A DNA stretch of 23,173 bases. Origin: Candidatus Nutricula glyptotermitis (GTDB lineage Bacteria; Actinomycetota; Actinomycetes; Actinomycetales; Bifidobacteriaceae). The stretch lies in contig JAISFQ010000100.1 of NCBI GenBank assembly GCA_031263495.1, positions 1 through 23,173 on the forward strand, in the 5' to 3' direction. The translations under genes and the position numbers were made by a program. Positions 1,291 through 18,797 of the stretch are shown piece after piece. The stretch's first letter is position 1. Every line of letters begins with the position of its first letter. Below the pieces are notes generated by a model. That model did not search any database. It was given only the letters and a program-made list of their open reading frames with translations, and was not told where the DNA came from.

Positions 1291-4206
1291 ATGTCATTCT
1301 TAGATAAAATACTGCGCGCTGGCGAAGGTAAGGAACTTCGCAGGCTCGAGGATTATGCAAACCAAATAAATGCGCTTGAGCAGGACTTTGAGCGCATGGC
1401 TGATGAGGAACTTCGTGGGTCGACTGCGAGTTTCAGGGAAAGAGTTGAGAACGGTGAGGAACTTGATTCCTTGCTACCTGAAGCATTCGCAGCGGTTCGC
1501 GAAGCGTCGAAGAGAACGCTTGGTCAGAGGCACTTTGACGTCCAGTTGATGGGAGGTGCTGCGCTTCATCGCGGTAACATTGCCGAAATGAAAACTGGCG
1601 AGGGCAAGACACTTGTCGCGACTTTGCCTGCGTATTTGAACTCGCTTTCGGGCGATGGCGTGCATATTGTTACAGTTAACGATTATTTGGCGTCGTATCA
1701 GAGCGAACTCATGGGCAGGGTGTTTAGGTTTTTGAACACATCGGTCGGTTGCGTATTGACGAATCAGAAGAGTTTTGGGCGCAAGAAACAGTATGACGCT
1801 GATATTACTTATGGCACGAACAACGAGTTCGGCTTCGATTATCTGCGCGACAACATGGCGTGGGAAAAGGCAGATTTGGTGCAACGCGTCCACAATTTCG
1901 CGATTATCGACGAGGTGGACTCCATCTTAATCGACGAAGCGAGAACGCCACTTATCATTTCCGGACCTGCGATGGGCGAGGCGAACAAGTGGTACGTAGA
2001 ATTTGCGAAAATCGTGCGCAATTTGGAACGCGATGTGGACTATGAGATTGACGAGAAAAAGAAAACGGCAGGCATTTTGGAGCACGGAGTTGAGGAAGTG
2101 GAAAGAATGCTTGGCGTCAGTAATTTATACGAATCGCTTAACACACCGCTGATTGGCTATCTGAACAACGCAATTCGCGCGAAGGAACTTTTTGACTTGG
2201 ACGATGATTATATCGTGCGCAACGGCGAAGTGCTCATAGTCGACGAGCACACTGGGCGCGTTTTGGATGGTAGGCGATATTCTGAAGGCATGCATCAGGC
2301 GATTGAAGCGAAGGAAGGCGTAAAGATTAAGGCGGAAAACCAAACTTATGCCACCATAACGCTACAAAATTACTTCCGCATGTATAATAAACTGTCCGGC
2401 ATGACAGGCACGGCGGAAACGGAGGCTGGCGAGTTTATGTCGACCTACAACTTGGGCGTGATTCCGATTCCGACCAATAAACCGATGATTCGCGACGACA
2501 AAATCGACGTCGTTTACCGCACTGAGATTGCTAAGTTTAACGCGGTTGCAGATGATATTGAAGAGCGCAAGAACAAGGGTCAGCCAGTTTTGGTCGGCAC
2601 TGTGAGCGTCGAAAAATCTGAGTATTTGTCAAAGTTACTGCGTGAGCGCGGAGTTGAGCACAACGTTTTGAACGCGAAACAGCATGCACGTGAAGCGGCA
2701 GTCGTTGCGTTAGCAGGCAAAAAAGGCATGGTCACGGTCGCGACGAACATGGCTGGGCGCGGAACGGACATTATGCTTGGCGGTAACGCGGAGTTTTTGA
2801 CGCAGGAACGGCTGAAAGCGAAAGGTTTGGACCCAGAAGAGAACTCTGAGGAATACGAAAAGGCGTGGGGCGTTACTCTCGACGAAGTGCGCAAAGAAGT
2901 CGCTGCTGAGCACGATGAAGTTAGCGAACTCGGCGGACTTTATGTCTTGGGTACAGAACGCCACGAATCTCGCCGCATTGACAATCAGTTACGCGGTCGC
3001 TCGGGCAGGCAAGGTGACCCTGGTGAATCGCGCTTTTATATATCGCTCGACGACGATTTAATGCGTTTATTTAATACGGCGTTTGCGGAAAAAATGCTTT
3101 CAATGATCGACGCACCTGACGATATGCCGATCGAATACAAGACTATGTCTAAGAGCATTAGGCGTGCTCAGGCGCAGATTGAAGCGCGTAACTTTGAGAT
3201 TCGCAAGAACGTGCTTAAATATGACGAAGTTATGAACAACCAGCGCACAGTGATGTATCGCGAACGTGGCAGAGTTTTGCAAGGCGAGGACTTATACGAC
3301 CAAATTCAGCGCATGATTGATGGCGTTTTATCAGACACAGTTACAGTTGCGACGCTCGAAGGTAGCCCTGAAGAATGGAACTTGGACGCACTTTGGACGG
3401 AACTTCAAAATATCGCACCGATTACAGTCACAGCGGGCGATCTTATTGAAAAAGTTGGGATTATCGGCAGTTTAGCGCCTGATGATATAATCGACGCAGT
3501 TCTTGAAAATGCGCATGCGATTTACGACGAGCGCGAAGAAATGGTCGGCACTGAACAGATGCGCGATTTGGAGCGAAAAGTTCTACTTTCCGTGCTTGAC
3601 AGGAAGTGGCGCGAGCATTTGTATGCGATGGATTACCTGAAAGAAGGCATCGGACTTCGTGCAATGGCGCAAAAAGATCCGCTGGTCGAATACACTACCG
3701 AAGGTTCGCGCATGTTCAACGACATGAACGAAGCGATTCGCTTGGACACCGTCCGCACGCTGTTCAACATACAAATCAGGCGCGTCGAACCGACTGACGA
3801 ATCTGAATCTGAGACCGCAGAAATTGGCATTACCGAAGAAGCGCGTCAAAATGTTGACCTGCAATACAGCGCACCCGACGAAACCGCAGCCTCTGGTTCC
3901 CCGCTTGACAGTTTCCGCGAGGAAGCAGCACAAAACAACGCACAAGACCAGCAATCAGGCGAAAATGCACCTCAAAATCAGCAAACCACTCCCCCAAAGC
4001 CAGCAGTTCGTGAAGCAGAAAAACCTTGGTCTGATGGCAGAACTTTCCCTGGCACACCTAAAAACGCCGATTGCCCTTGTGGCTCTGGCAGAAAGTATAA
4101 ACTGTGCCATGGACAGAACGAAAAGAGTGCTGGAAATGGGAATGTTAACCATAAGAATGGCAAGTCTTCGAACAAAAAAGGCGGAAAGAAAAAGAAGAAA
4201 CGTTAA
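1291..4206 (+). CDS. secA: Preprotein translocase ATPase SecA. Has a C-terminal Q/N-rich linker, a zinc-binding motif ([14 protein letters not shown]) and a polylysine tail.
   Basis: 971 aa. Walker [13 protein letters not shown]-like DEVD, Walker B and helicase motifs, and a SecA signature throughout. The C-terminal CXCXSG(X8)CH zinc finger is canonical. Confidence 0.97.
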
Positions 4207-5541: not shown

Positions 5542-8022
5542 ATGATAAAAGATTACAGATTGCTCACTTTGGCGCTATGTGTGTGGCTCGGCGGATTGTG
5601 CACATTCTTTATGCCCAGTTTACTGACTGTTTTACTGATGTTCGGCGTGTCGATGGGGCTGTTGTTACTGATGCTATTCTTAAAACAGTTCGCAGATTAC
5701 AGCATAAAAGACAAGCTTGCAACGTTTTTATGCATAATTATGGCGTTCGCGTTCAGTTTCATAATCACAAGTTACGTAGGCTTCGCGTTCCACCCAGATG
5801 TCAGTGCAAAAATTGGCAAAACAGTCACGGTAACAGGCACAATATCGTCAAATTCAAGTTCAAACGTCGATTTGCAAGGCGATGTTAAATGCTCGGCAGT
5901 AGTCGAATTGTCAAGTTTGAGAGAAGGCAGAATCGAAACGAATGCGCACTTTTTCATACGCGTGTTTTCGGACGATTCGATGTGCAAATACCAGTTCGGA
6001 GAGACAATTTCGGCACGCGGAAAAGTTACAGAACCGCTTTCGTTCTCAAAGGAAGCATTTTGGATGAACAACGCGAGCGTTACAAAAATCGGCGATGCAC
6101 CAGCCATCGAGCAGTTTTTCAACGACATGAAGGCACGCACAGTCGTCGCGACCGAGTCGATCGAGAACAAAGACGCGCTCGGCTTGATGTTCGGAATGTC
6201 GTTCGGCGACAAGCAATACATGTCCAAAACTTTGATTACGAACACCGCAAACTCGTCACTTTCGCACCTGACAGCGGTTTCAGGCACGCATTTGGTCATA
6301 CTAATCGCGGTTATACAGGCGTTTTTATTCGCACTCAGACTGCCAAACTTCGTGATTGTAGTGTTGCAAATTGTCATAATATCGTTCTTTACCATGTTTG
6401 TGCACAGCGTCGATTCCATAATGCGAGCAGCGTTTATGAGCATTGCGGGTTTGTTGTCAATCTTTTTCAAGCGACCGTCCAACGCAATTTCCGCACTCTC
6501 AGCAGGCATAATCGCGTTAATCTTGCTTGACCCATTTCGCGCGATTTCGTATGGATTTATACTTTCGTGTCTCGCAACTTTCGCAATCATAGTGTTCAGC
6601 GGCAAAATGGCAGAGAAATTGGAACGCGTTTTGGCCGAAAGTTTGGGCAAAATTGTGGCGATTCCGTTAGTCGCAACTATATTCTCAAGCCCGATAATTT
6701 ACCTGATGAATGGGCAGATTCAGTTACTCGGCGTGATTTCAAACATTCTCGTTTCGCCATTCGTTTCGGGCGCGACGATTTTCGGCATATTGAGCACTGT
6801 AACGTCATTTATCCCATCTCTCAGCGCAGTTTTGGGTTACATTGGCGCATTTTTCTCAAACTTTATCGTTGTTATCGCGAACGCAGTCGGCGAAATGCCA
6901 TTTGCAGCACCGATGTGGTTACCGTTTTTACCACTGCCAATAGGCTTTATGCTGATGATTGCGATGTTTGTCATAATGTACAACTTCAATCGCATATATA
7001 GGTTCATGTTCAAAAAAGTTACGGGTTACGAGGCGAGTGAGGCGAACAATTTGACCACGAAAGCGAAGCGCAAGTTCGCGAAGTTTACGCATAAATATAA
7101 GGAAATGTTTGCACTACAACCCGCAATCGTGATTTTCGCAGTTGTCATACTGATTTTGCCCATTACTGGCATTACTGCGTATTCCGTCCAGAACACAGGC
7201 AGCGTTCCGAAAACATGGATGATCGGCGCGTGCAAAGTCGGTCAGGGCGACGCAAATTTGATACGTACAGGTGCAAATAGTGCGATTTTGGTCGACACTG
7301 GACCTGACCTGGACCTGCTCACAGATTGCATGGACGCATTCGCAATCCACAACATCGATTTACTCGTCCTTACGCACTTTCACTCGGATCACGTCGCAGG
7401 CACTCGCGCTTTACTTGATAAACTACCAGTTAAACAGGCACTTGTTTCCCCTGTGCAAGCGTCCAGTAATGAAGTTAAAGATAATCTCACTGCATTGGAC
7501 GCGAAAAACATCCCGTACCACATCGCAGAAGCGGGCGAAACTGCAACAATTCAGTCAGGCGATTTCAATGTAAAGTGGGAAGTTCTACAAAGTAAAACCG
7601 CAGGTGACGTGACCAAAATGAGTGCCGCGAAACTTGACGACGCGGAAAACAATTCAAGCATTGCGTTATTTATCGAAGCAACTGACAGATTCGGCGGCAC
7701 AGAACAAAAACTTACAGAAATATTGCTTGGCGATTTGGAAAGTACAGGTCAAAGTTCCCTGCTCGGCGCGATTAAAGGTAACGCAAAGTACGCAAATGTC
7801 GACGTTCTGAAAGTCGCACATCATGGTTCAAAAACGCAAAATAAGGATCTCGCAAAGTTTCTCGCGCCAAAAGTTGCCATATATGATGTCGGCAAAAATA
7901 CATTCGGTCACCCAAACCCCACGACAGTCGAACTGTTTGAAAGCCTTGGTGCGGTTTCGCTCGACACGTTTTCATCAAATGTCGGAGTTTATGCGGGGGA
8001 TGGGTTGGTGGGGTTTAGATGA
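5542..8022 (+). CDS. comEC: DNA internalization competence protein ComEC/Rec2 (polytopic membrane competence domain plus C-terminal metallo-beta-lactamase domain)
   Basis: 826 aa with many TM helices. MBL motif LTHFHSDHVAG (HxHxDH) and a later AHHGS. SD GGGGTGG lies before the ATG at 5542. Gene order comEA-comEC. Confidence 0.9.
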   Translation: MIKDYRLLTLALCVWLGGLCTFFMPSLLTVLLMFGVSMGLLLLMLFLKQFADYSIKDKLATFLCIIMAFAFSFIITSYVGFAFHPDVSAKIGKTVTVTGTISSNSSSNVDLQGDVKCSAVVELSSLREGRIETNAHFFIRVFSDDSMCKYQFGETISARGKVTEPLSFSKEAFWMNNASVTKIGDAPAIEQFFNDMKARTVVATESIENKDALGLMFGMSFGDKQYMSKTLITNTANSSLSHLTAVSGTHLVILIAVIQAFLFALRLPNFVIVVLQIVIISFFTMFVHSVDSIMRAAFMSIAGLLSIFFKRPSNAISALSAGIIALILLDPFRAISYGFILSCLATFAIIVFSGKMAEKLERVLAESLGKIVAIPLVATIFSSPIIYLMNGQIQLLGVISNILVSPFVSGATIFGILSTVTSFIPSLSAVLGYIGAFFSNFIVVIANAVGEMPFAAPMWLPFLPLPIGFMLMIAMFVIMYNFNRIYRFMFKKVTGYEASEANNLTTKAKRKFAKFTHKYKEMFALQPAIVIFAVVILILPITGITAYSVQNTGSVPKTWMIGACKVGQGDANLIRTGANSAILVDTGPDLDLLTDCMDAFAIHNIDLLVLTHFHSDHVAGTRALLDKLPVKQALVSPVQASSNEVKDNLTALDAKNIPYHIAEAGETATIQSGDFNVKWEVLQSKTAGDVTKMSAAKLDDAENNSSIALFIEATDRFGGTEQKLTEILLGDLESTGQSSLLGAIKGNAKYANVDVLKVAHHGSKTQNKDLAKFLAPKVAIYDVGKNTFGHPNPTTVELFESLGAVSLDTFSSNVGVYAGDGLVGFR

Positions 8023-8452: not shown

Positions 8453-8479
8453 GAGGTAAAAGTGTGAGCGTGAGCGAAC

Positions 8480-8760
8480 TCCGTTTTGTACGTAGCGAGG
8501 AGTACTCTATAATGCCACGCAGTACTTCATTTCTGAATCCCGCACCGCGAAACGAAGTGTAGCGTGATGCGGAATCTTAATTAAAAGTATGAGCCGTCAG
8601 GCGAATGCATTTATTGGTGTTCGCATACGCTCACACTAGTTTTAAGATTCCAGAGGGTCGGACGCTCCTCGCGTCCTCCTACACAGAATTCAGAGTGGTG
8701 GAGTAGTGCGGGGTTCTGAGTACCCCCTTGTCATCTAGCAAGCGAATGCGATGCGGGATC
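8480..8760 (-). repeat. Reverse-orientation partial copy of the composite modular repeat, including the MITE-like palindromic element at 8566-8651.
   Basis: The reverse complement of 8507-8540 matches 'cggtgcggaattcagaaatgaagtactgcgtggcatta' at 4411-4448. 8566-8651 begins with 'gatgcggaatcttaa' and ends with 'ttaagattcc'. Confidence 0.75.
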
Positions 8761-8848: not shown

Positions 8849-8949
8849 AGTGCACCATGCGCGCGGTAGCAATGCACAAGTCAGAGGGCGCGGAGCGCAC
8901 GCTGACGCAGTGCTATTGGAGTATGAGCGAAAGCGAATTCCGATTCCTA

Positions 8950-9048
8950 ATTATTAACTATTAACTATTCATTATTAACTAACCGCATTACTCATTACTC
9001 ATTACTCATTACTCATTACTCATTACTCATTATTCCTTACTCATTAAC
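8950..9048 (+). repeat. Heptanucleotide microsatellite array. About 5 attaact-type units are followed by 6 perfect CATTACT units (8986-9027) and variants (cattatt, ccttact, cattaac). It ends ~20 nt upstream of the -35 of the operon promoter.
   Basis: Counted unit by unit in the sequence. Confidence 0.9.
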
Positions 9049-9118: not shown

Positions 9119-10399
9119 ATGGCAGACGAAGACAATGAACTGGATGTGATTGATTATAAGGGCGCGAACGATACGTTTGTGTGGCGCTCGCCGATAACTG
9201 ATTTTAACATTGGGACGCAACTTATCGTTCACGAGGCGCAGGAGGCACTGTTTTTCGCGAATGGGCAGGCGCTTGACCTGTTTGGACCAGGCAGGCATAC
9301 TCTAACCACGGAAAACATACCGATGGTCAGGAACTTTTTCAACAAGGCGACTGGCGACAAAACACCCTTCAAAACCGAGGTTTACTACATCAATAAGGCA
9401 TATCAGCCGAACATCACATGGGGCACACCGCAGAAAGTCGAGTATAAAGACCCACAGATAAATGACCTGCTCAGCGTCGGTGCGTCGGGCGCGATTGGCG
9501 TGCGCGTTTCAGATTCTCGCAAGTTCATCATCAAGATTGTCGCGAACGAATACAGTTTCGATCAAGCACTGTTTGCGCAGAAGTTTAAGGACTTATACCT
9601 GCTCCCGAACATTAAAGAAGCACTAGTTAAGCCATTAATCAGTGGCGAATTCAGCGTCGTCGATATAAACTCGAAGTTAACAGAATATGGCACTCAGATT
9701 CGCACACTGATTGCACCAATTTTCGACGACTACGGGCTCGATGTGTTCGGGTTTTCGATTGCAAATATTGCATTACCGACCGAGCCTGCATTTGAACGCC
9801 TGAAGGAGATTATGTCCTTCGAATCACGCGCACTTTATGCCGACCAACAGGTAACTCTCGAACGAAAAGCACAGGAAAAGTTGGCGCAAGAAACCTACAT
9901 ACAAGGCAACGCAGAAACTGACGTAATCGCGCGCAGACAGCAAATGTTGGGCTACACTTATCAAGACGAAACGGCGCGTAAAGTTGGCGAGAAAATGGCG
10001 GAAAACGAAGCGAAAGGCGAGTATATGAACGCAGGAATTGGCTTGGGCATGATGGGCGGTGTAATGGGCGGCGTCGGCACGATGATGGGCAATGTCGTAA
10101 ATACTGCGATGAGTCCAACTAACGAGCAGAACCAAAATGTGCCACAAAACGCACAACAGAATGTACAGCAAAATGCGCCACAAGCAGGCGAAACGCCGAA
10201 TCAAAATATGCAAGGGGTTGACATAACTAGTCAAGTACCTGACAAACTACGTAAGGGGGTTACATATTCTGACGCGCCCCCGCCAAACAACTCGGCGTTT
10301 ACAGAAAAGTTGGACAAACTAGTCGCATTAAAGAACTCTGGCATACTGACTGAGCAGGAGTTTAATGCGCAAAAGGCAAGTTTATTGAAGGAGTTGTAA
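9119..10399 (+). CDS. SPFH/Band-7 (flotillin-like, COG4260/YdjI-like) protein with a Gly/Met-rich segment, a Q/N-rich linker and a C-terminal SHOCT domain
   Basis: 426 aa. The N-terminal ~250 aa have the SPFH-like beta/alpha pattern. The C-terminal EKLDKLVALKNSGILTEQEFNAQKASLL is a typical SHOCT motif. First gene of the operon. Confidence 0.7.
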   Translation: MADEDNELDVIDYKGANDTFVWRSPITDFNIGTQLIVHEAQEALFFANGQALDLFGPGRHTLTTENIPMVRNFFNKATGDKTPFKTEVYYINKAYQPNITWGTPQKVEYKDPQINDLLSVGASGAIGVRVSDSRKFIIKIVANEYSFDQALFAQKFKDLYLLPNIKEALVKPLISGEFSVVDINSKLTEYGTQIRTLIAPIFDDYGLDVFGFSIANIALPTEPAFERLKEIMSFESRALYADQQVTLERKAQEKLAQETYIQGNAETDVIARRQQMLGYTYQDETARKVGEKMAENEAKGEYMNAGIGLGMMGGVMGGVGTMMGNVVNTAMSPTNEQNQNVPQNAQQNVQQNAPQAGETPNQNMQGVDITSQVPDKLRKGVTYSDAPPPNNSAFTEKLDKLVALKNSGILTEQEFNAQKASLLKEL

Positions 10400-10400
10400 G

Positions 10401-11105
10401 ATGAATGACAAAAAATTGACTGGAAACCTGAACATCACGCTGATTGTGTCCGCAATCGTGCTGGTTGTGTATAACGTAATCGCGTTCGTGGTGCCGATTG
10501 ACAGAAATAGCAGTTTTTGGACTACCTACGCGTTCCAAATGATTGCGATTATTCTGTCCGCACTTGTCGCTTCGTACGCCACCAAAAAACCGACGCTGAA
10601 GTCGCTATACTTAGGCATTTCGCTGTTCTACGTCGCTATGCGCTATGTTATAACCGAACTCGTCGTCGGGACGCTGTTATTGCTACTGCCGACCGCTCTG
10701 AACTGGGTATCTATCATCGCGCAAGTGGTTATACTGGCTGTATTTTTGATATGCGTTATCGTTACAGACCGCGCGAAGGACGTAATCGAATCGACGGAAG
10801 CGCATATCGCGACGAAACGCCAGTTTGTGCAGTCAAACCTCGCAACAGTTGAAGGTTTAATAGATACGACTACTGACGATGAGTTACGGAAAAACTTACA
10901 GAACTTGGCGGAAACCATCAAGTTTTCAGACCCGATGAGCACAGATGATGTTGCCGAACTTGAAGAAATCGAAAGCGAGATTGACCGCGAGATTGTCAAT
11001 TTGCAAACTGCGATTCAAGCAAACGAAAGCACTGCAAAAGCACAAATTAACGACGTTGAACTGCTGTTTAAGAAGCGCAACAGACTGGTCAAACAGGCTA
11101 AATAG
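10401..11105 (+). CDS. Membrane protein with 4 predicted TM helices and a C-terminal cytoplasmic acidic coiled-coil (YdjH-like partner?)
   Basis: 234 aa. The ATG lies 1 nt after the upstream stop, with a strong SD GAAGGAG 8 nt upstream, which indicates translational coupling. Hydrophobic segments at aa 12-33, 40-60, 68-90 and 100-122. Confidence 0.7.
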   Translation: MNDKKLTGNLNITLIVSAIVLVVYNVIAFVVPIDRNSSFWTTYAFQMIAIILSALVASYATKKPTLKSLYLGISLFYVAMRYVITELVVGTLLLLLPTALNWVSIIAQVVILAVFLICVIVTDRAKDVIESTEAHIATKRQFVQSNLATVEGLIDTTTDDELRKNLQNLAETIKFSDPMSTDDVAELEEIESEIDREIVNLQTAIQANESTAKAQINDVELLFKKRNRLVKQAK

Positions 11106-11112
11106 GGGAAGT

Positions 11113-12630
11113 ATGATCGTCCAAACATGCAAAAAGTGTGGCGGAAACGTGGTTTTGGAGTCCGAAAACGTAAAAACGATCGGCATTTGCGAGTTTTGTG
11201 GCACAAGAACGACAGTCGCCAAAATCGACGAAGATCAGGCAATTGCGCTATATAATCGTGCGAATAAATACCGCGAGACCTGCGATTTTGAGAACGCGAG
11301 CGAGATATACGAAGAGTTACTTTTGAAAAACAACAGCAGTGCAGAAGCGCATTTCGGGCTCGTTTTGTGCAACTACGGCGTGGAATATGTCAAAGACGAT
11401 AGCACAGGAAAATATAAGCCAACTTTGCACACTGTAAACAGCACACCAATCGCGGACGACGTGGAATATAACGAAGCAATTCGCTTGTCAGACGGCGATA
11501 CTAGGGCGATTTATGAACGCGACGCGCGCGAAATTCAGAAGATTTTGGACAAATACTTAGCAATCGCAGCGTCCGAAAAACCTTACGACATTTTCATTTC
11601 ATACCGCCACAACGACGACCGCGGTTTGCCGACTTTGGACAGTGGAATCGCGCAAAAAATATACAAGGAACTCAAAAACAAGGGCTACAACGCGTTCTTT
11701 TCCAAAATATCGCTCGAGGACAAACTAGGTTCAGAATACGAACCATACATATTTTCCGCACTACTGGCTGCGAAAGTGATGATTGTCGTCGGTTCGAGTA
11801 ACGCAAACATGAACTCAAAGTGGGTCAAAAATGAGTGGCACAGATTCTTGGCGCAAACGATGAAAGACCACCAAAAACGCCTAATTGCGTGCTTTATAGA
11901 CATGGACGTATACGATTTACCGCGTGAATTTGCCGCACTACAATCACAGGACATGCGCAAAGTTTCCGCACTTGACGATTTGGTAACCAGTATCGACAAA
12001 ATATTTGGCAAGAACGACAGTGCGCACGTAAATGCGGGCGTAAGCGAGATAATCAGCACGTTTTCAAGCAGAAATGCAGAGTTGAAAGACCTAATCGAGA
12101 ATGGCTATGTTTACCTTGATCAGGAAAACTTTGGCTCTGCGACGCGCGAATTCAATCGTGCACTAGATTTGAAGCCGAACAGCGCCGATGCGTATTTGGG
12201 AATGGTGCTTTCAGATGCTCGCTCAAAAGACTTCGCCGAGTTCAAAAGCCTATTTAACTCTCGCTACATGGGGTTTTTGTACGAATCGACAGTGTTTCAG
12301 CGGTTTGTGCAATATGCCAGTGGTGCGCAGAGAAATGAGATTGTGGAGTTGCTGATTGGTAACGAAAAGCGTGAACTTGCGAAATATAAGTCGGTGCAAG
12401 ATGATGCAATCAATAGCGGTTTGGACGCACATTCAAAACTTGCAGATTATACGTTGAGCGAGATGACCGAAGTTAGCGAAAAGTATCAAAACAGCAACAT
12501 AAACGACAAAAATGCAGATAATGTGCGCGAAATCTTGGACAACGACGCATTTTATATCGACGAGTTGATAAGCGATTTGGAGCGCGATAATGAAAAGATT
12601 AAGCGCGATGTGCTTGCGGGTGATTGGTAA
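11113..12630 (+). CDS. Zinc-ribbon + TPR-like + TIR-domain protein with a C-terminal helical/TPR region
   Basis: 505 aa from the ATG at 11113. The track's 10945 start lies inside the previous gene. CxxC...CxxC (CKKCGG...CEFCGT) at the N-terminus. TIR signature KPYDIFISYRHNDD...AKVMIVVGSS...SKWVKNEW. TPR-like LDLKPNSADAYLGMVL. Confidence 0.75.
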   Translation: MIVQTCKKCGGNVVLESENVKTIGICEFCGTRTTVAKIDEDQAIALYNRANKYRETCDFENASEIYEELLLKNNSSAEAHFGLVLCNYGVEYVKDDSTGKYKPTLHTVNSTPIADDVEYNEAIRLSDGDTRAIYERDAREIQKILDKYLAIAASEKPYDIFISYRHNDDRGLPTLDSGIAQKIYKELKNKGYNAFFSKISLEDKLGSEYEPYIFSALLAAKVMIVVGSSNANMNSKWVKNEWHRFLAQTMKDHQKRLIACFIDMDVYDLPREFAALQSQDMRKVSALDDLVTSIDKIFGKNDSAHVNAGVSEIISTFSSRNAELKDLIENGYVYLDQENFGSATREFNRALDLKPNSADAYLGMVLSDARSKDFAEFKSLFNSRYMGFLYESTVFQRFVQYASGAQRNEIVELLIGNEKRELAKYKSVQDDAINSGLDAHSKLADYTLSEMTEVSEKYQNSNINDKNADNVREILDNDAFYIDELISDLERDNEKIKRDVLAGDW

Positions 12631-12633
12631 AAT

Positions 12634-13083
12634 ATGAAAGTAGCACTAGCGATTTTTGGTATTTTTGTAGCAATAGCACTTCTCGTGCAGTTTTGGTATG
12701 TCACGCTTCCACTCATTGCTCTATTTATCATATGGTGTGCGATAAGTGTGAAAAAAGATAATAAAGAAAAAAAAGAGGCTGAAGAACGAGTTACGGTAAT
12801 AGCGCGGAAGGAAAACATAACAAACAATAAAATTCAGCCAAACTTAGGTAAAATTGATGAGTTAATCAGTTTGAAAAAGCATTTGGTGCGACAGCATAAC
12901 ACGATAGTCGTCAACAAATATCACATTTTGGCACGCGAAGCAAACATCGATATGCTTGAAAATGTGCAGTCGGGAAGCACTAATAAACTTGGCGATATGC
13001 AACAACAAGTTCTTGATTTTACAGAAGTATCTGGCGAGGAAATAAGCGAAAGCAAGTTTGAAACTTTTCTGTTTAAGGTGTAG
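12634..13083 (+). CDS. Small membrane protein: 2 N-terminal TM helices plus a ~110-aa cytoplasmic domain. Candidate effector or anchor of the operon.
   Basis: 149 aa. The ATG lies 3 nt after the TIR gene stop. MKVALAIFGIFVAIALLVQFWYVTLPLIALFIIWCAISV. Confidence 0.6.
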   Translation: MKVALAIFGIFVAIALLVQFWYVTLPLIALFIIWCAISVKKDNKEKKEAEERVTVIARKENITNNKIQPNLGKIDELISLKKHLVRQHNTIVVNKYHILAREANIDMLENVQSGSTNKLGDMQQQVLDFTEVSGEEISESKFETFLFKV

Positions 13084-13130: not shown

Positions 13131-13159
13131 TTGACACGCAGTTCAAAATGTGTTAGACT
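13131..13159 (+). promoter_or_regulatory. Candidate ssrA promoter: TTGACA (13131-13136), a 17-nt spacer, then TAGACT (13154-13159)
   Basis: Hexamers read directly. The precursor 5' leader would be processed by RNase P. Confidence 0.4.
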
Positions 13160-13201: not shown

Positions 13202-13555
13202 GGGGATGATTGGCATCGACTGTATTATGTGATTCAGAGTAAGCGAGCGGAGAATGTGCCTAACTCTTTAAAATTGGTGCAAACTATAAGTGCAAACACA
13301 AATCGCACTGGTTATGCCCTAGCGGCGTAATCCGTCCGACTGATAATTTTGCTTTCGGTCATCAGTTGGGCGTCGTAACTAGAAAGCCACTGGTCATTTG
13401 TCATGTTGGTGGGCAAATGGCGAGACTTTAATCAACTTGGGTATGCTATTTCGTCTGTTTGAGACGCATACTTGAAACTTAACAAGCAGACTGCGCTCGG
13501 AGAAAGTTTTGATGAAGTAATTTGGGACCCGGGTTCGACTCCCGGCATCTCCACA
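13202..13555 (+). ncRNA. ssrA: tmRNA (SsrA), standard one-piece. Tag ORF 13292-13330 encodes ANTNRTGYALAA followed by a stop.
   Basis: 5' GGGGATGATTGGCATCGAC, compared with the E. coli GGGGCUGAUUCUGGAUUCGAC. The 3' T-arm GGGTTCGACTCCCGG plus CATCTCC-A pairs with the 5' GGGGATG through a G3·U wobble (AlaRS identity). The resume codon is GCA, and the tag ends ...YALAA-TAA. Confidence 0.9.
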
Positions 13556-13583
13556 TGTACTTCGCTGAAAAAGCAGTACTGGG

Positions 13584-13848: not shown

Positions 13849-13870
13849 TCAAGAACTGTAAGTTTATTCT

Positions 13871-14836
13871 CGCTCATACTCCACCTCAGAACCCCGCACA
13901 TACTCCCACTCTGAATTCCTGCGAAGGCAGGAATCTTAAAACTAGTGTGAGCGCATGCGAACACCATTAAATGCATTCGCTATTGCTCATAGGGTCAAAT
14001 GGGGTCAAATGCTCATTCGCATTTTCCTCCGCTGGGTCAAATGCTCAATCGCATTCTCCTCCGTTTCAAGAGTCCGCATCACGCTACACTTCGTTCCGCG
14101 GTGCGGAATTCAGAGTAAGAGTATTGCGTGGCATGTAAGAGTACTGCTTGTTACGTACGAATCGGAGTTCGCTTCGCTCACACTCTTACCCCCGCAACTT
14201 TTCAAAACAACTTCGCTTACGGGATGACAAGGTACTTCTTGCTAATACTCCACCTCAGAACCCCGCACATACTCCACCTCAGAACCCCGCACTCCGTTGC
14301 GGAATCTTAAAACTAGTGTGAGCGCATGCGAACACCATTAAATGCATTCGCTATCGCTCATAGGGTCAAATGCTCAATCGCATTCTCCTCCATTTCAAGA
14401 TTCCGCATCACGCTCGCTTCGCTTCACGGTGCGGAATTCAGAGTAAGAGTATTGCGTGGCATTAAGAGTACTCCTCGCTACGTACAAAAAGGAGTTCGCT
14501 TCGCTCACGCTTTTACCCGCGCAACTTTTCAAAACAACTTCGCATACGGGATGACAAGGTACTTCTTGCTCATACTCCACCTCAGAATTCCGCACATACT
14601 CCCACTCAGAATTCCGCACTTGTTGCGGAATCTTAAAACTAGTGTGAGCGTATGCGAACACCATTAAATGCATTCGCTAATCGCTCATAGGGTCAAACGC
14701 TCATCCGCGAGGGTCAAATGCTCAATCGCATTCTCCTCCATTTCAAGATTCCGCATCACGCTACACTTCGTTTCTCGGTGCTAAATTCAGAGGTGAAGTA
14801 CTGCGTGGCATTAGGAGTACTACCTTGTCATCTAGG
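13871..14836 (+). repeat. Tandem array, about 2.7 copies (periods 369 and 327 bp), of the composite modular repeat. Each unit holds 22-nt 'actccacctcagaaccccgcac' sub-repeats, a MITE-like palindrome (gcggaatcttaaaa...tttcaagattccgc) and a 'gggatgacaagg' inverted-repeat module.
   Basis: 'tactccacctcag' recurs at 13877, 14246 and 14573. The ORFs of the track inside it (e.g. the duplicated MRTPLNAFAIAHRVK... peptides) are repeat artefacts. Confidence 0.85.
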
Positions 14837-14870
14837 TAGCGCGTGAAACGCGCGACACGGGATCTGGCTT
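14822..14870 (+). repeat. R2 element, the second copy flanking the tandem array
   Basis: ccttgtcatctaggtagcgcgtgaaacgcgcgacacgggatctg. Confidence 0.75.
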
Positions 14871-15025
14871 CTTACTATGTAACGTACTTTCTCGCTAATC
14901 GCAGATCCCGCATCGCTTCGCTCGCGGGATGACAACTGTGGTGATGCATCGTGCATACTCGCTGAATTTGAGAAGTTAAAAGTGCAGACAGTGAACTTAA
15001 TGATGGGAAAAAATCTCACGAAATT

Positions 15026-15556
15026 TCATAAGTTCTTTGCGAGTATTTCTCCTTTTTCACGTTTAAGTTCTATTAATCTGGACTGCTCTGTGGATATTTG
15101 CTGTTCAAGGTTCTTAACCTTTGATACTATCTTTTCTTGAATGCGAAGTGGGGGAATTATGACAGTATATTCTAATATTTTTCTTTTATCTCCACGTGGC
15201 ATTTTTGTACCATTTGCGGTTTGCATTGCATAATTGAAAAACCTATCATCCATCAATAGGCGCATAATGAATAGTGGCAAAATATCTTTTGCATGAGATT
15301 CGTTCAATTGCAAAACTAAAACATCGCCACTCGCTCCACCAGAATTATTTGCAAACCAAATCTTTTTTAGATAAGGTCTGATGTTGCCAATCAGAATATC
15401 ACCCTCATTATACTTTGCGTAGTTGCCGTCTATGGGAACAAAGTTTGATTGCTGTTTTCCGAGTTTACCCTGTAGCAGATTATCAACTCCAACATAATTT
15501 TCAGGATTCAATTCTGCGGAACTTATTTTATTTCGGCTATAGTGTAGAATCTCCAC
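15026..15556 (-). CDS. HsdS-like target-recognition domain 2 plus conserved region (IIPPLRIQEKIV). It is the out-of-frame 3' continuation of the upstream R-M-S gene. As a separate ORF it would use a GTG start.
   Basis: 176 aa. The 'PPL..QEKI' conserved HsdS motif and the coiled-coil tail parallel the C-terminus of the upstream ORF (IPVPPIDVQEKII). Frame is +1 relative to the upstream ORF. Confidence 0.75.
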   Translation of the reverse strand: MEILHYSRNKISSAELNPENYVGVDNLLQGKLGKQQSNFVPIDGNYAKYNEGDILIGNIRPYLKKIWFANNSGGASGDVLVLQLNESHAKDILPLFIMRLLMDDRFFNYAMQTANGTKMPRGDKRKILEYTVIIPPLRIQEKIVSKVKNLEQQISTEQSRLIELKREKGEILAKNL

Positions 15557-15560
15557 TAAT

Positions 15561-18500
15561 TTATATTTTTGCCCCCCCCCCCCTTAAATTGTCCATTATA
15601 CTGGAGATTTGAGTGCTTAGGTCTGCGATTTGCTCTTTGGCAATTTGTTCTTGTTGCTCAACTTCTTCGTAATCAGCGATTATTTTTTCTTGTACGTCAA
15701 TTGGTGGCACTGGTATTTGTATATTCTCCACTGCACTTTGATTAATGCCTCCTTGTGCCGCTCCAGCTTTTGCATTACGTAAAAGAGCTTGTCCAGTTTC
15801 TGACAGGAGCATATAAAACAAATATTTTTGCAATACATCCGAATTCTCTCTTACACGCAATATAAATATATGCTCATTGACCATGACTTTTTCATTAGCA
15901 AACTCGTTCCTTACAAGTGCCACTTTCCCTGTTTGTGCACCATCTTTACAGATTAAAATATCGTTTACCTTCAACTTTGCGCTTTCTTTTGCACTTTTAT
16001 AATACTCATGTGGCACATATTTTGGTGAACTTAAATTGATATACCCCGAAGTACTGTCGATATGTTCACCTCCGATGCTTAAAGCACCATTTTCTATATT
16101 CTTGACACCACCTTTAGGTCTACTCCCACTTATAGGCTTGTCCGTTAAAAATTGCCCGATTGCTTTAAGGGGGTACTCTGTATTCCAGTCAATTTTCTCA
16201 TTTGCTCCGACTCCACTTTCATTAGTCAAGTTAATCACTTTATGAAAAACAGGTGTCTGCCAATCAATCATGTCCTCCAAGTAATTGACACTGACGTATT
16301 TTTCTAAATGCTTGGGTATATTTACCGTTTCGCCATTGAAGTTTTTGCGAATCAACCCATTGATTGTTCCTGTTCCCAAATATAAATTGTCGGGGTCAAA
16401 CAGTGGAGTTTGAATTTGGCTTATATCTCCTGCGAGAATTCCAATTCCCTCGTTCCCTTTGCGATTTGACCAGCCATAACCTAGAAATTTTTCTGCAGTA
16501 TCTCCGGTTTTCTCAGAAGGCGTTTTAACTATCAAGACAGGGCATGGGTTGTTTTTTGCAAGCATAAAACAGAGCAAACGCTCTTTATGCGTTTTGTTTG
16601 CAAGGACTTTTTTTGACGTCAATTTAACTTTTTTGCAATATTGCTGAAAAAGCTTTTTGTCTCTGAAAACTGAACTTTCAATTTTTTTGTCATTAAACCA
16701 TTTCTCTACACGATTTTTATACTGATCATAGCTAGAAGGGTTGTCAGACTTCTTTCTAAGGAATAGAGTCGAAGTGACCACACCAGTTTTTCCAAAAGTA
16801 GTAGCACCTGATTCAAAGATTGCGATAATGTCAAAATTCTTAAGCAATATATTTCTGCCTTCGATAAAGATAGTTTCATGGCTGTTTAAGATAGAAATAG
16901 GCAAAATGACAGTTGCGACTCCACTAGGTTTAAGTAATTTGGCGGCTTTTTCTAAGAAAAACACTTCAATATCGTCATTAGTCGGGACGTGTTTTTCTTT
17001 TAGTGCGTTATTGTATGCATCATAGTTTTCTCGGTAATCTTCAATTGTTTCAAGAAATCCTTTTACTGAATAAGGAGGGTTTGCAATCAAAACGGAAAAC
17101 GAGTTGTCTTCAATGCCGTTAACATCCGTTAATGCATCCGCATATTTTATTTTGATTTCTTTTTGCCCATACATGAGAGCGGAAACTTTTGCCACCTTCG
17201 CTAGACGACTTTCTTTCTCAATCCCATAGATTTCAGAATAATGCTTACTCAACTGTTTATCATCATCTACATAATGTGCAATTTGTGTTGCATATTCATT
17301 CAGAAAATGTCCTGCACCACATGCATAATCAATCACTTTTGGAATTTCATTTTGCTCAATAATTTCTTTTAGTGGCAACGAAGATACTAAGAAGCGTACG
17401 ATTGGAGTTGGTGTGAAAAATTGCCCTTCACTTTGCTTTACGCCATCATTCAAAAAGTTTTCAAAAAAATCACCTAAGAATTGATGTGACACTTTGGATG
17501 TAATCTGTAAATCTTCTAACATCTCAACCACCTGTATAAGAATCTCAGCATTTTGCTCAAAGAGAACTTCATTGTAAACGTCTAAGAACGAAAAATAGTT
17601 GTTAGAATAAAATCGCAGTCTGTCGAACTTTTCTTGAATTTTATCAAGTGTTGCATCTGGATCTGTTTTGACGAACTTAAAAGCGTCACGGACTTCTTCG
17701 CGACTCACATACTCAACTTTCTCGGACATGTGCTCCCACATCCCTTTGCGGTATAATTTCTGCAATCTATCAAATAAATCTTTCCGATCGTCAAATGCGA
17801 TAGTGTGCCAATAGAAGTCTAACTTCTCTTTATTTTCTGCACTTTCGATAACCTCTAGTTCATCAACCACTTTTGCGAGAAGTAAATTCAACAACTTATC
17901 AAAAGCGTTTTCTCTACCAGATACATTATACTTTCGTAAAATCTCACGAAAAGTATGGTATTTTCTAGCGAGAATGCTCGCGAAATTAGGAGTGTTGCTA
18001 GAATTGAGTAAATCATTAATACTGACAAACTTTTTGCCGACATTAAAAGGCTCTATATCTTTTTCAAACATCCCCATTGACGAGACAGCTCCACGATACG
18101 TCCCCTGCCAAACTTGATATAATTCGCGACTATTATTTGATAGCGCATATGATTCCGCCTGCTTATTGTCATTGAGATAGGATTCGTTGTCGTTCAAGAT
18201 TACCAATTGATATTCTCGTGATAAATCATAATTTTCAAATACCTGTTCATTGATTTTACTCTCAGATGTTTTAATGAAATCCGAAGTGTATAAGACTAGG
18301 TTTGGAAAACGGCGTTCACCATTTTCATCGGTATGTCCGAGAACTTGTGCATAATCAAAAAGTTGCCCACCAGACATTTCAAGTCTTTTTTTTGCCTTTC
18401 CGTACTCTTTTCCTGGCGTTTTGCATTCAATCAGAGCAAAACAGTTATCGTTTCTGTCTGATATGCGAATGTCTGCCCAGTTTAGCTTATTTGTTTGCAA

Positions 18501-18797
18501 TTTGAATTCGAGAGTTATATCCTCGGGATGATAATGCAACTCAAATAGACGGTTAACGCACTCAAAAACGACAAAACTCTCATTTTGATGAAAAGAGGTG
18601 ATTGTAGTTGCTCTGTCATATCTCACGCCATCAGGATATATAAACTCCTGCTTCCTCGTGTCCACAGCGAGCTTGAATTCACTCGCCTTTCCAACATCGA
18701 ACACCTTTTCATACTTTCCCTCTTTGTCATCTGTAAACTCTAAATGTTTTAGTAACTTTGGGAATGTCGCTTTAGTAATCATATTTTGCCCTTCCAT
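15561..18797 (-). CDS. Single-chain Type IIB/IIG-like restriction-modification enzyme. It has an N-terminal PD-(D/E)xK nuclease, a gamma-class N6-adenine methyltransferase and a C-terminal HsdS-like TRD1. It is truncated relative to a full R-M-S by the G12 tract.
   Basis: 1078 aa. Nuclease motif ISDRNDNCFALIECKTPG. MTase motif I DYACGAGHFL and motif IV LIANPPYS. C-terminal TRD with IQIPVPPIDVQEKII. The likely true start is M6 (ATG 18782), which is preceded by SD GAAGGG. Confidence 0.85.
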   Translation of the reverse strand: MEGQNMITKATFPKLLKHLEFTDDKEGKYEKVFDVGKASEFKLAVDTRKQEFIYPDGVRYDRATTITSFHQNESFVVFECVNRLFELHYHPEDITLEFKLQTNKLNWADIRISDRNDNCFALIECKTPGKEYGKAKKRLEMSGGQLFDYAQVLGHTDENGERRFPNLVLYTSDFIKTSESKINEQVFENYDLSREYQLVILNDNESYLNDNKQAESYALSNNSRELYQVWQGTYRGAVSSMGMFEKDIEPFNVGKKFVSINDLLNSSNTPNFASILARKYHTFREILRKYNVSGRENAFDKLLNLLLAKVVDELEVIESAENKEKLDFYWHTIAFDDRKDLFDRLQKLYRKGMWEHMSEKVEYVSREEVRDAFKFVKTDPDATLDKIQEKFDRLRFYSNNYFSFLDVYNEVLFEQNAEILIQVVEMLEDLQITSKVSHQFLGDFFENFLNDGVKQSEGQFFTPTPIVRFLVSSLPLKEIIEQNEIPKVIDYACGAGHFLNEYATQIAHYVDDDKQLSKHYSEIYGIEKESRLAKVAKVSALMYGQKEIKIKYADALTDVNGIEDNSFSVLIANPPYSVKGFLETIEDYRENYDAYNNALKEKHVPTNDDIEVFFLEKAAKLLKPSGVATVILPISILNSHETIFIEGRNILLKNFDIIAIFESGATTFGKTGVVTSTLFLRKKSDNPSSYDQYKNRVEKWFNDKKIESSVFRDKKLFQQYCKKVKLTSKKVLANKTHKERLLCFMLAKNNPCPVLIVKTPSEKTGDTAEKFLGYGWSNRKGNEGIGILAGDISQIQTPLFDPDNLYLGTGTINGLIRKNFNGETVNIPKHLEKYVSVNYLEDMIDWQTPVFHKVINLTNESGVGANEKIDWNTEYPLKAIGQFLTDKPISGSRPKGGVKNIENGALSIGGEHIDSTSGYINLSSPKYVPHEYYKSAKESAKLKVNDILICKDGAQTGKVALVRNEFANEKVMVNEHIFILRVRENSDVLQKYLFYMLLSETGQALLRNAKAGAAQGGINQSAVENIQIPVPPIDVQEKIIADYEEVEQQEQIAKEQIADLSTQISSIMDNLRGGGAKI
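15572..15583 (-). repeat. Homopolymeric tract: C12 on + (G12 on the coding strand), encoding ...RGGGAKI* at the 3' end of the R-M-S ORF. Candidate slipped-strand phase-variation switch.
   Basis: Counted as 15572-15580 (9 C) plus 15581-15583 (3 C). With G11, the reading ...RGGGQKYKLVEILHYSRNKIS... continues into the downstream TRD2 ORF. Confidence 0.9.

Follow-up and report, generated by a model that had tools for sequence, protein, structure and literature searches.

A widespread gene module of gut bacteria joins an SPFH protein, a four-helix membrane protein and a zinc-ribbon protein that often carries a TIR domain

What would a bacterium use a TIR-domain protein for when its gene stands directly behind the genes for an SPFH protein and a membrane protein? 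The question is raised by a four-gene operon in a 23,173-nt stretch of DNA (contig JAISFQ010000100.1, here called the window) from a metagenome-assembled genome of the Bifidobacteriaceae, Candidatus Nutricula glyptotermitis. An original prediction, made from the sequence alone, had described this operon as a candidate membrane-coupled TIR defence or envelope-stress system. We found that its first three genes belong to a module that is widespread in gut bacteria and has no name, consisting of an SPFH protein, a protein with four transmembrane (TM) helices (4-TM protein) and a zinc-ribbon protein that often carries a TIR domain. The operon in the window is a member of this module together with a lineage-specific small membrane protein. 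Its parts are as follows.

9119-10399, + strand: gene 1, open reading frame (ORF) for an SPFH protein of 426 aa
10401-11105, + strand: gene 2, ORF for a 4-TM protein of 234 aa
11113-12630, + strand: gene 3, ORF for a zinc-ribbon/TPR/TIR/TPR protein of 505 aa, with its ATG 7 nt past the gene 2 stop
12634-13083, + strand: gene 4, ORF for a small 2-TM protein of 149 aa
9069-9098, + strand: sigma-70-type promoter sequence TTGACA-N18-TACTAT with a TG extension, 10 of 12 consensus positions matched

The four + strand ORFs, the gaps of 1, 7 and 3 nt between them, the Shine-Dalgarno sequence inside the end of gene 1 (GAAGGAG, 6 nt ahead of the gene 2 ATG) and the promoter hexamers are all present as originally described. 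The promoter sequence was the top + strand candidate in a scan that returned 17 promoter-like sites in the real sequence and 9.5 +/- 3.1 in shuffled sequences, and its match to the consensus makes it a candidate promoter for the operon. We found no intrinsic terminator on the + strand 3' of gene 4.

To begin with the protein that carries the TIR domain, the product of gene 3 starts with a zinc ribbon (residues 1-35), which is followed by a helical/TPR region with a beta-hairpin (41-154), the TIR domain (158-298), a further TPR/helical region (310-400) and long helices modelled with low confidence (404-501). Hydropathy analysis found no TM segment in this protein. In Pfam, TIR_2 was matched at E 4.5e-14 (53.4 bits, cut-off 28), TPR_2 and TPR_11 were matched at about 1e-7, with TPR units flanking the TIR domain on both sides, and residues 5-31 gave a weak match to an A2L-type zinc ribbon. 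Foldseek searches with the TIR part of an AlphaFold model (mean pLDDT 81, 60 sequences in the alignment) returned the TIR domains of flax L7, SARM1, AbTir and SPARTA at a probability of 1.00 (TMt 0.64 for SARM1 and 0.70 for AbTir), and chains of SPARTA TIR-APAZ and TIR-STING were also matched. The TIR domains of SARM1 and AbTir are NADases. In an alignment of 120 TIR homologues, the zinc-ribbon motif CxxCGG...CxxCG was at least 98% conserved, the TIR core was nearly invariant, and residue E241, within the motif WVKNEW, was identical in 120/120 proteins. E241 aligns opposite the Glu of the SSWCLDE motif in the plant TIR domain AtTIR (3jrn) and is presumably the equivalent of SARM1 E642. The full TIR domain between TPR segments that the original prediction had read from the sequence is thus present with its Glu kept. 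Judged by sequence and predicted fold, it is a genuine TIR domain with the residue used by NAD-cleaving TIR domains, and it may cleave NAD+. At E ≤ 0.001, 414 of the candidates scored are homologues of gene 3; they are 36-48% identical to it, save one fragment with 69% identity, and the few with a named source come from Firmicutes (Lacrimispora, Clostridiales).

The product of gene 1 matches Band_7_1 (PF13421) over residues 22-222, at 126.2 bits (cut-off 24, E 1.8e-36). Residues 396-423 form a SHOCT-like domain (E 5.4e-06) whose 26.4 bits lie just under the cut-off of 27, and precomputed Pfam annotation assigns PF09851 to this protein and to most of its close homologues. A low-complexity linker rich in Gly/Met and Gln/Asn occupies residues ~295-375. 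No hydrophobic 19-mer was found by hydropathy, and the protein is predicted to be soluble. Among the candidates scored, 1938 homologues reached E ≤ 0.001; many of them end in SHOCT and others in double zinc ribbons. A sequence search of the PDB found no relative of gene 1 and no structure of any Band_7_1 protein.

For the product of gene 2, hydropathy and an AlphaFold model (pLDDT 89) agree on four TM helices and a cytoplasmic helical domain, with helices at residues 8-30, 37-61, 66-95 and 101-156 ahead of a helical bundle. A loop in the cytoplasmic domain, SDPMS (residues 176-180), is invariant in alignments of the closer family members. The best Pfam match was no better than E 0.017, there was none to TPM, and a fold search of the PDB gave no meaningful match (best E 0.17). 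The originally proposed Band_7, 4-TM and zinc-ribbon assignments hold, and the SHOCT assignment is borderline. The 4-TM family has no Pfam model and is large: a profile search over 1.84 billion cluster representatives returned 4266 at E ≤ 0.001, of which 1185 reached E ≤ 1e-30. An N-terminal Ser/Thr protein kinase is fused to some members, in one case through an intervening zinc ribbon, and others have C-terminal RCC1, trypsin-like or DUF6273 domains (P0291, P0398, P0403, P0293, P0412 and P0382 are examples of the fusions). These fusions suggest that the 4-TM domain is a general membrane input module.

We next asked whether the three genes travel together in other genomes. All five TIR homologues that we looked up stand beside a Band_7_1 gene and a 4-TM homologue, in the orders SPFH-TM-TIR, TIR-SPFH-TM or convergent; the 4-TM homologue is an unannotated neighbour of 141-233 aa with 22-37% identity to gene 2. 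SPFH homologues from other phyla gave the full trio in two of three cases (a termite-gut metagenome and Chitinispirillales). The third, from Spirochaetia, has SPFH and 4-TM genes followed by unannotated genes, one with a weak TPR match, and a DUF87/HerA-like ATPase gene, with no TIR gene. With an alignment of the 4-TM family as the sole query, we then scanned one genome per species across 185,579 species and found a 4-TM relative encoded in at least 328 of these genomes. Locus counts were made in the best 80 of the 328, whose ORFs were searched with profiles built from our own matches. An SPFH gene lies directly upstream of the 4-TM gene in 78/80 loci, and 41/80 have at least one zinc-ribbon-TPR-TIR gene; seven of these 41 have 2-3 tandem TIR paralogues with different C-terminal domains. 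A further 19/80 loci encode a non-TIR protein that matches the same zinc-ribbon profile. The remaining 20/80 mostly encode a ~664-aa protein without a Pfam domain, often followed by a ~905-aa HerA-like ATPase; among these loci, seven of eight scanned genes just 3' of the 4-TM gene lack a TIR domain, and five of them start with a TFIIB/A2L-type zinc ribbon. The domains found in non-TIR third components are DUF6273, BspA-type leucine-rich repeats (LRR), RCC1 and L7/L12-C.

These counts indicate that the core of the module is an SPFH protein, a 4-TM protein and a zinc-ribbon-headed protein, with TIR as the commonest payload. The co-conservation that the original prediction had proposed as a check thus reaches well beyond this strain, and TIR stands as the commonest third component, although it is not obligatory. 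The SPFH subfamily tracks the type of the third gene, with profile scores of ~1e-180 to 1e-228 for SPFH proteins that have TIR/TPR partners and ~1e-75 to 1e-84 for those with the ~664-aa partner that often precedes the HerA-like ATPase. The distribution of the module is patchy and comprises Clostridia, Treponema, Chitinispirillales, Kiritimatiellaeota, Coriobacteriia and the Bifidobacteriaceae genome analysed here.

The TIR-less loci include a second subtype (L040, L055, L057, L066, L015; L045, L046, L048, L050, L054, L060) with a divergent SPFH gene, a 4-TM gene and the gene for the ~664-aa protein; its last gene encodes either a HerA/DUF87-like ATPase of ~905 aa or an uncharacterised protein of ~580 aa. 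An A2L-type zinc ribbon was detected in the ~664-aa protein of a further locus (L058).

The module matches no named system in PADLOC-DB 2.0, NCBIfam or our full-text literature searches, in line with the original prediction, which had recognised none. Genes 1, 2 and 4 matched no family in PADLOC-DB 2.0.0 at E ≤ 0.1. For gene 3, PADLOC returned generic TIR matches alone (PDC-S66 at 2.6e-06, ThsB at E 0.0049 and 14.7 bits), the SAVED_TIR profile matched its TIR part only (E 0.023), and the NCBIfam profile for ThcB4 of type III Thoeris gave 24 bits against a cut-off of 220. The operon includes no cyclase, SAVED, STING or Argonaute partner, the window holds no ThsA-like gene, and no bacterial system with SPFH and TIR combined turned up in the full-text searches. 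What the gene 3 protein shares with Thoeris ThsB, the TIR effectors of CBASS and Pycsar, SPARTA and TIR-STING is a TIR domain with a catalytic-type Glu. That domain is structurally similar to those of SPARTA TIR-APAZ and TIR-STING, and its matches to the ThsB-type and type III Thoeris profiles are weak and far under the family cut-offs. None of the known TIR anti-phage systems has, to our knowledge, an SPFH scaffold and a 4-TM protein as partners, as is the case here.

How might the three proteins act together? We tentatively favor a scheme in which a membrane-anchored scaffold controls the self-association of TIR NADases on membrane disturbance, probably in a response of the abortive-infection type. 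The 4-TM protein would sit in the membrane as anchor and sensor, and the soluble SPFH protein would oligomerise beneath it, as SPFH proteins generally do; this partnership is modelled on the dependence of YdjI on membrane partners in Bacillus subtilis. The output domain, here TIR, would be carried by the third protein, recruited through its N-terminal zinc ribbon. When the membrane is disturbed, with infection by a phage or some other insult to the envelope as the most plausible causes, the scaffold would change, and the TIR domains would then self-associate into assemblies that cleave NAD+, so that either depletion or an ADP-ribose-derived signal would stop growth. In the window, the 2-TM protein of gene 4 would probably tether the long C-terminal helices of gene 3 to the membrane. 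A 4-TM protein that serves as membrane input fits the fusion of this domain to Ser/Thr kinases. What the analysis establishes is gene linkage, domain identities, conservation of the Glu and predicted topologies; the interactions, the trigger, the NADase activity and the anti-phage role are inferred. The scheme would share with HflK/C-FtsH, by analogy, the model of a membrane SPFH oligomer that confines or regulates a partner enzyme. HflK/C is itself membrane-anchored and of the classical Band_7 family, and its enclosed client FtsH is a protease, not a TIR protein. A looser analogy is offered by the plant HIR proteins, SPFH scaffolds that work with immune or receptor proteins; they associate with immune receptors (PMC13534476), and they are eukaryotic, belong to another SPFH subfamily and have no operon logic.

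A defence role for the module is plausible as an inference from its conflict-type features, which are a swappable third component that includes HerA-like ATPases, tandem paralogues with varied binding domains and a patchy distribution, and from the intact catalytic-type residue of the TIR domain. The Type IIG restriction-modification enzyme encoded 2.5 kb from the operon also speaks for a conflict role. Several observations weigh against a dedicated immune function. The genes flanking 38 TIR loci (132 proteins) showed no PADLOC enrichment, with at most 4/132 matched, by generic helix-turn-helix (HTH) or ATPase families, and by their Pfam domains they are for the most part housekeeping proteins (MatE 5, integrase 3, resolvase 2). 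The 4-TM gene was found in 0/50,697 phage records, gave one weak match in 72,556 plasmids and is present on 2 of 2.9 million viral contigs. Several species of Lacrimispora and its relatives keep the module at the same chromosomal position, by nusA-infB or other core genes, as would be expected of a resident function more than of defence genes, which turn over fast. TIR is missing from about half of the modules, so the scaffold may in general serve something other than NAD+ cleavage, and YdjI, the sole characterised relative of the SPFH protein, acts in envelope-stress repair and not in immunity. Finally, gene 3 differs from its family at many near-invariant positions (W81F, R107T, E166H, R173P, P259A); these departures from the consensus fit a distant, probably horizontally acquired family member. 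In searches of PHROGs, the operon proteins gave SHOCT or weak matches only. One locus, from human gut (L008, 1-7328), has TIR-SPFH-4TM directly 3' of the Kiwa genes KwaA/KwaB, with TnpV, an excisionase-like HTH gene and a tyrosine integrase; it is the sole clear mobile or defence neighbourhood that we met, and it counts in favour of a conflict role.

We also considered that the operon could be an envelope-stress or membrane-homeostasis module of the YdjGHI type, in which the SPFH and 4-TM proteins would organise or repair regions of the membrane, with the zinc-ribbon/TPR protein as a client adaptor and the TIR domain as an oligomerisation surface or a source of a local NAD-derived physiological signal, not a means of killing on infection. 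The original prediction had likened the first three genes to ydjI/ydjH/ydjG, and we compared them with published descriptions of the Bacillus proteins. The band-7 protein YdjI is soluble, contains a low-complexity stretch and ends in a zinc finger, and its localisation at the membrane depends on YdjG and YdjH (PMC8581546; see also PMC9239133, PMC11237479). For YdjH a TPM domain is described, and for YdjG a pair of zinc ribbons together with an NTF2-like domain and a TM segment (PMC11237479). Gene 1 shares with YdjI the Band_7_1 type, solubility, the low-complexity stretch and a small C-terminal domain, and in both cases the operon also encodes a membrane protein and a protein headed by a TFIIB-type zinc ribbon, which in YdjG as in gene 3 makes a zinc-ribbon-headed partner. 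Many of the partner SPFH proteins in other loci combine Band_7_1 with C-terminal zinc ribbons, as described for YdjI. The mostly housekeeping flanks, the syntenic position across related species, the absence of TIR from half of the modules and the 4-TM-Ser/Thr kinase fusions, which are typical of physiological signalling, all speak for such a role as well.

The likeness to ydjGHI stops at the Band_7_1 family and the theme of a zinc-ribbon partner. Gene 2 has four TM helices without a TPM domain and is therefore not YdjH; gene 3 has one zinc ribbon, TPR and TIR, without the second zinc ribbon, the NTF2-like domain or the TM segment of YdjG; the gene order is reversed; and gene 1 ends in a SHOCT-like domain in place of a zinc ribbon. 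As had been noted from the sequence, no pspA accompanies the operon: we found no PspA-type gene among window ORFs of at least 80 aa, nor in the Pfam-annotated neighbourhoods of eight module loci. Strict conservation of the Glu and of the TIR core is hard to square with a pure scaffold, and tandem paralogues with LRR, lectin-like and RCC1 ends would be unusual for a housekeeping device. We regard an envelope-stress module as a serious contender that is, on present evidence, somewhat unlikely. If the operon did prove to be such a device, it would be the first link between bacterial TIR chemistry and membrane homeostasis.

The TIR proteins of other loci differ from gene 3 in a feature that bears on where the signal might come from. 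In 35/52 TIR genes from the loci, the TIR domain is followed by a TM helix of the protein's own. Of the 120 aligned homologues, 32 continue beyond the TIR-TPR core with a single, strongly hydrophobic helix and then a stretch of 100 residues or more; another 20 are tail-anchored and the remainder are soluble. The 15 residues before the helix of the 32 proteins contain 5.7 Lys and Arg residues compared with 1.7 after it, and 29/32 obey the positive-inside rule, which places the TIR side in the cytoplasm. The external domains whose positions we verified are BspA-type LRR (LRR_5), RCC1, DUF6273 and FMN_bind. Genes for TIR proteins with such ectodomains often occur as 2-3 tandem paralogues beside a single SPFH/4-TM pair. 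Many homologues hence resemble animal Toll-like receptors in having a cytoplasmic TIR domain, one TM helix and an external binding domain, with the order reversed (TIR N-terminal, LRR C-terminal), LRR of the BspA type and a probably independent origin; gene 3 itself has neither the TM segment nor the LRR. TIR domains of Toll-like receptors are adaptors, not NADases. Proteins P0006, P0013, P0034, P0043, P0074 and P0089 and loci L008, L053, L079, L092 and L094 are examples of the reversed layout.

A broader form of the defence hypothesis would gather all of these variants into one widespread, unnamed innate-immune module of gut anaerobes, in which an SPFH protein and a 4-TM sensor hold TIR NADases at the membrane, many of the paralogues are themselves receptors whose external LRR or lectin-like domains set off NAD+ cleavage by outside-in signalling in the style of Toll-like receptors, and the window carries a split variant with a soluble TIR protein, acquired by an actinobacterial lineage. 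We consider this doubtful as a whole. It is also conceivable, though improbable in our judgement, that the proteins are primarily surface receptors, in which an external LRR, RCC1, DUF6273 or FGE-type domain binds a phage particle, a neighbouring cell or a host molecule, the TM helix relays the event to the cytoplasmic TIR domain, and the SPFH/4-TM pair clusters the receptors. The topology of the 32 TM-bearing homologues and their verified ectodomains agree with this idea, and DUF6273 is reported to be a target of diversity-generating retroelements in phage receptor-binding proteins. However, the idea applies mainly to the TM-bearing paralogues: gene 3, without a TM segment or an external domain, would have to be a derived, receptor-less form, and the homologues that are merely tail-anchored or soluble do not have the layout either. 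Reception at the surface is moreover compatible with a defence function and does not exclude it.

Innate immunity in animals, plants and bacteria alike makes use of TIR domains, and the bacterial TIR systems we know of respond to cytoplasmic triggers such as nucleotides, guide-target duplexes or phage proteins. If the proposed scaffold-controlled NADase is real, a TIR protein wired to SPFH and a membrane sensor would add the state of the membrane, and even extracellular ligands, to these triggers, and the poorly understood Band_7_1/YdjI branch of SPFH proteins would gain a defined client. With at least 328 species genomes, 4266 clusters of the 4-TM family and its occurrence in cultivable Lacrimispora, the module is frequent enough for study, and because it exists naturally in forms that have or lack TIR, and that have or lack ectodomains, the way it works can be tested directly.

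The fourth gene stands apart from the conserved trio. Residues 3-39 of its product form a single long hydrophobic stretch that is consistent with a 2-TM hairpin by hydropathy, and the Lys-rich, helical tail is probably cytoplasmic; searches of Pfam, PADLOC, NCBIfam and PHROGs gave no family match. The nearest relative of the operon is a 1.5-kb metagenome contig (L097) with a TIR fragment 69% identical to gene 3, directly followed by a homologue of gene 4 (45% identity, E 9e-33). The GTG start of this homologue overlaps the TIR stop (GTGA) in a different frame, so the small gene of L097 is separate and translationally coupled, and gene 4 is a real separate gene in this lineage. It is very improbable that the four genes are adjacent by chance, with the trio kept in dozens of species, or that gene 4 is a tail severed from gene 3 through a nonsense mutation or a mistake in the assembly: genes 3 and 4 do share a reading frame with only TAA AAT between them (12628-12636), and homologues have TM helices at the equivalent position, but the overlap in another frame on L097 largely refutes a severed tail. 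We detected no resemblance between gene 4 and the C-terminal ends of the TIR homologues, nor between gene 4 and the DUF3592-like gene for a small membrane protein that stands behind the TIR gene in Chitinispirillales. Nor is gene 4 a general component of the module, since only 1/17 TIR genes without a TM helix in other loci has a small TM ORF at its 3' side. The four-gene system of the original prediction therefore holds for its first three genes; the fourth, judged by these comparisons, is conserved only in the nearest relative and lies outside the conserved system. The simplest reading is that gene 4 would act in trans as the membrane anchor, a part that most homologues have built in (in cis). 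Readthrough of the gene 3 stop into gene 4 would yield a protein of 656 aa, whose TM hairpin would fall at the position of the TM helices of homologues.

The wider surroundings of the operon contain the following features.

8473-8651, no strand assigned: single inverted copy of the repeat unit that is tandem 3' of ssrA (inverted-repeat search)
8948-8981, + strand: heptamer (TAACTAT) x 4.9, preceding the (CATTACT) tract (TRF, sequence read)
8986-9046, + strand: tandem heptamer (CATTACT) x 8.7, ending 22 nt 5' of the -35 hexamer (TRF)
13131-13159, + strand: promoter-like site for ssrA, the next feature after gene 4 (promoter scan)
13202-13556, + strand: transfer-messenger RNA (tmRNA) gene ssrA, tag ANTNRTGYALAA (ARAGORN; Rfam RF00023, 154.5 bits)
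13860-14871, no strand assigned: ~3 tandem copies of a 327-371-nt repeat unit (inverted-repeat search, TRF)
15026-15556, - strand: half-size specificity gene, 176 aa, directly downstream of the Type IIG gene
15561-18797, - strand: Type IIG restriction-modification enzyme, 1078 aa (PADLOC REase_MTase_IIG, 3.7e-286; Pfam)

Upstream of the operon lie rpe, hpf, secA (1291-4206), comEA and comEC (5542-8022); beyond ssrA, the Type IIG gene and the specificity gene are followed by scpB and smc. The interval of ~10.8 kb between comEC and scpB is made up of the operon, ssrA, the restriction-modification gene and two repeat-rich stretches, so the originally described position between a repeat-rich region and ssrA is real. 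A search of the JGI metagenome collection gave no relative for ComEC and, for SecA, a best match of only 59% identity, which indicates that the source lineage is poorly sampled. The repeat pairs I1-I7, formed between 8473-8651 and 13860-14871, show 81-98% complementarity, and a 51-nt repeat core has four copies in the window and none in shuffled sequences; the operon and ssrA are thus flanked on both sides by one repeat family, which may mark a segment that moves or recombines or may be an intergenic repeat spread through the genome. The Type IIG stretch has a GC content of 36-39%, compared with 42-50% in other parts of the window, and the half-size specificity gene beside it may be a spare target-recognition module. 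The heptamer tracts at 8948-9046, next to the candidate promoter, could vary in length by slipped-strand events.

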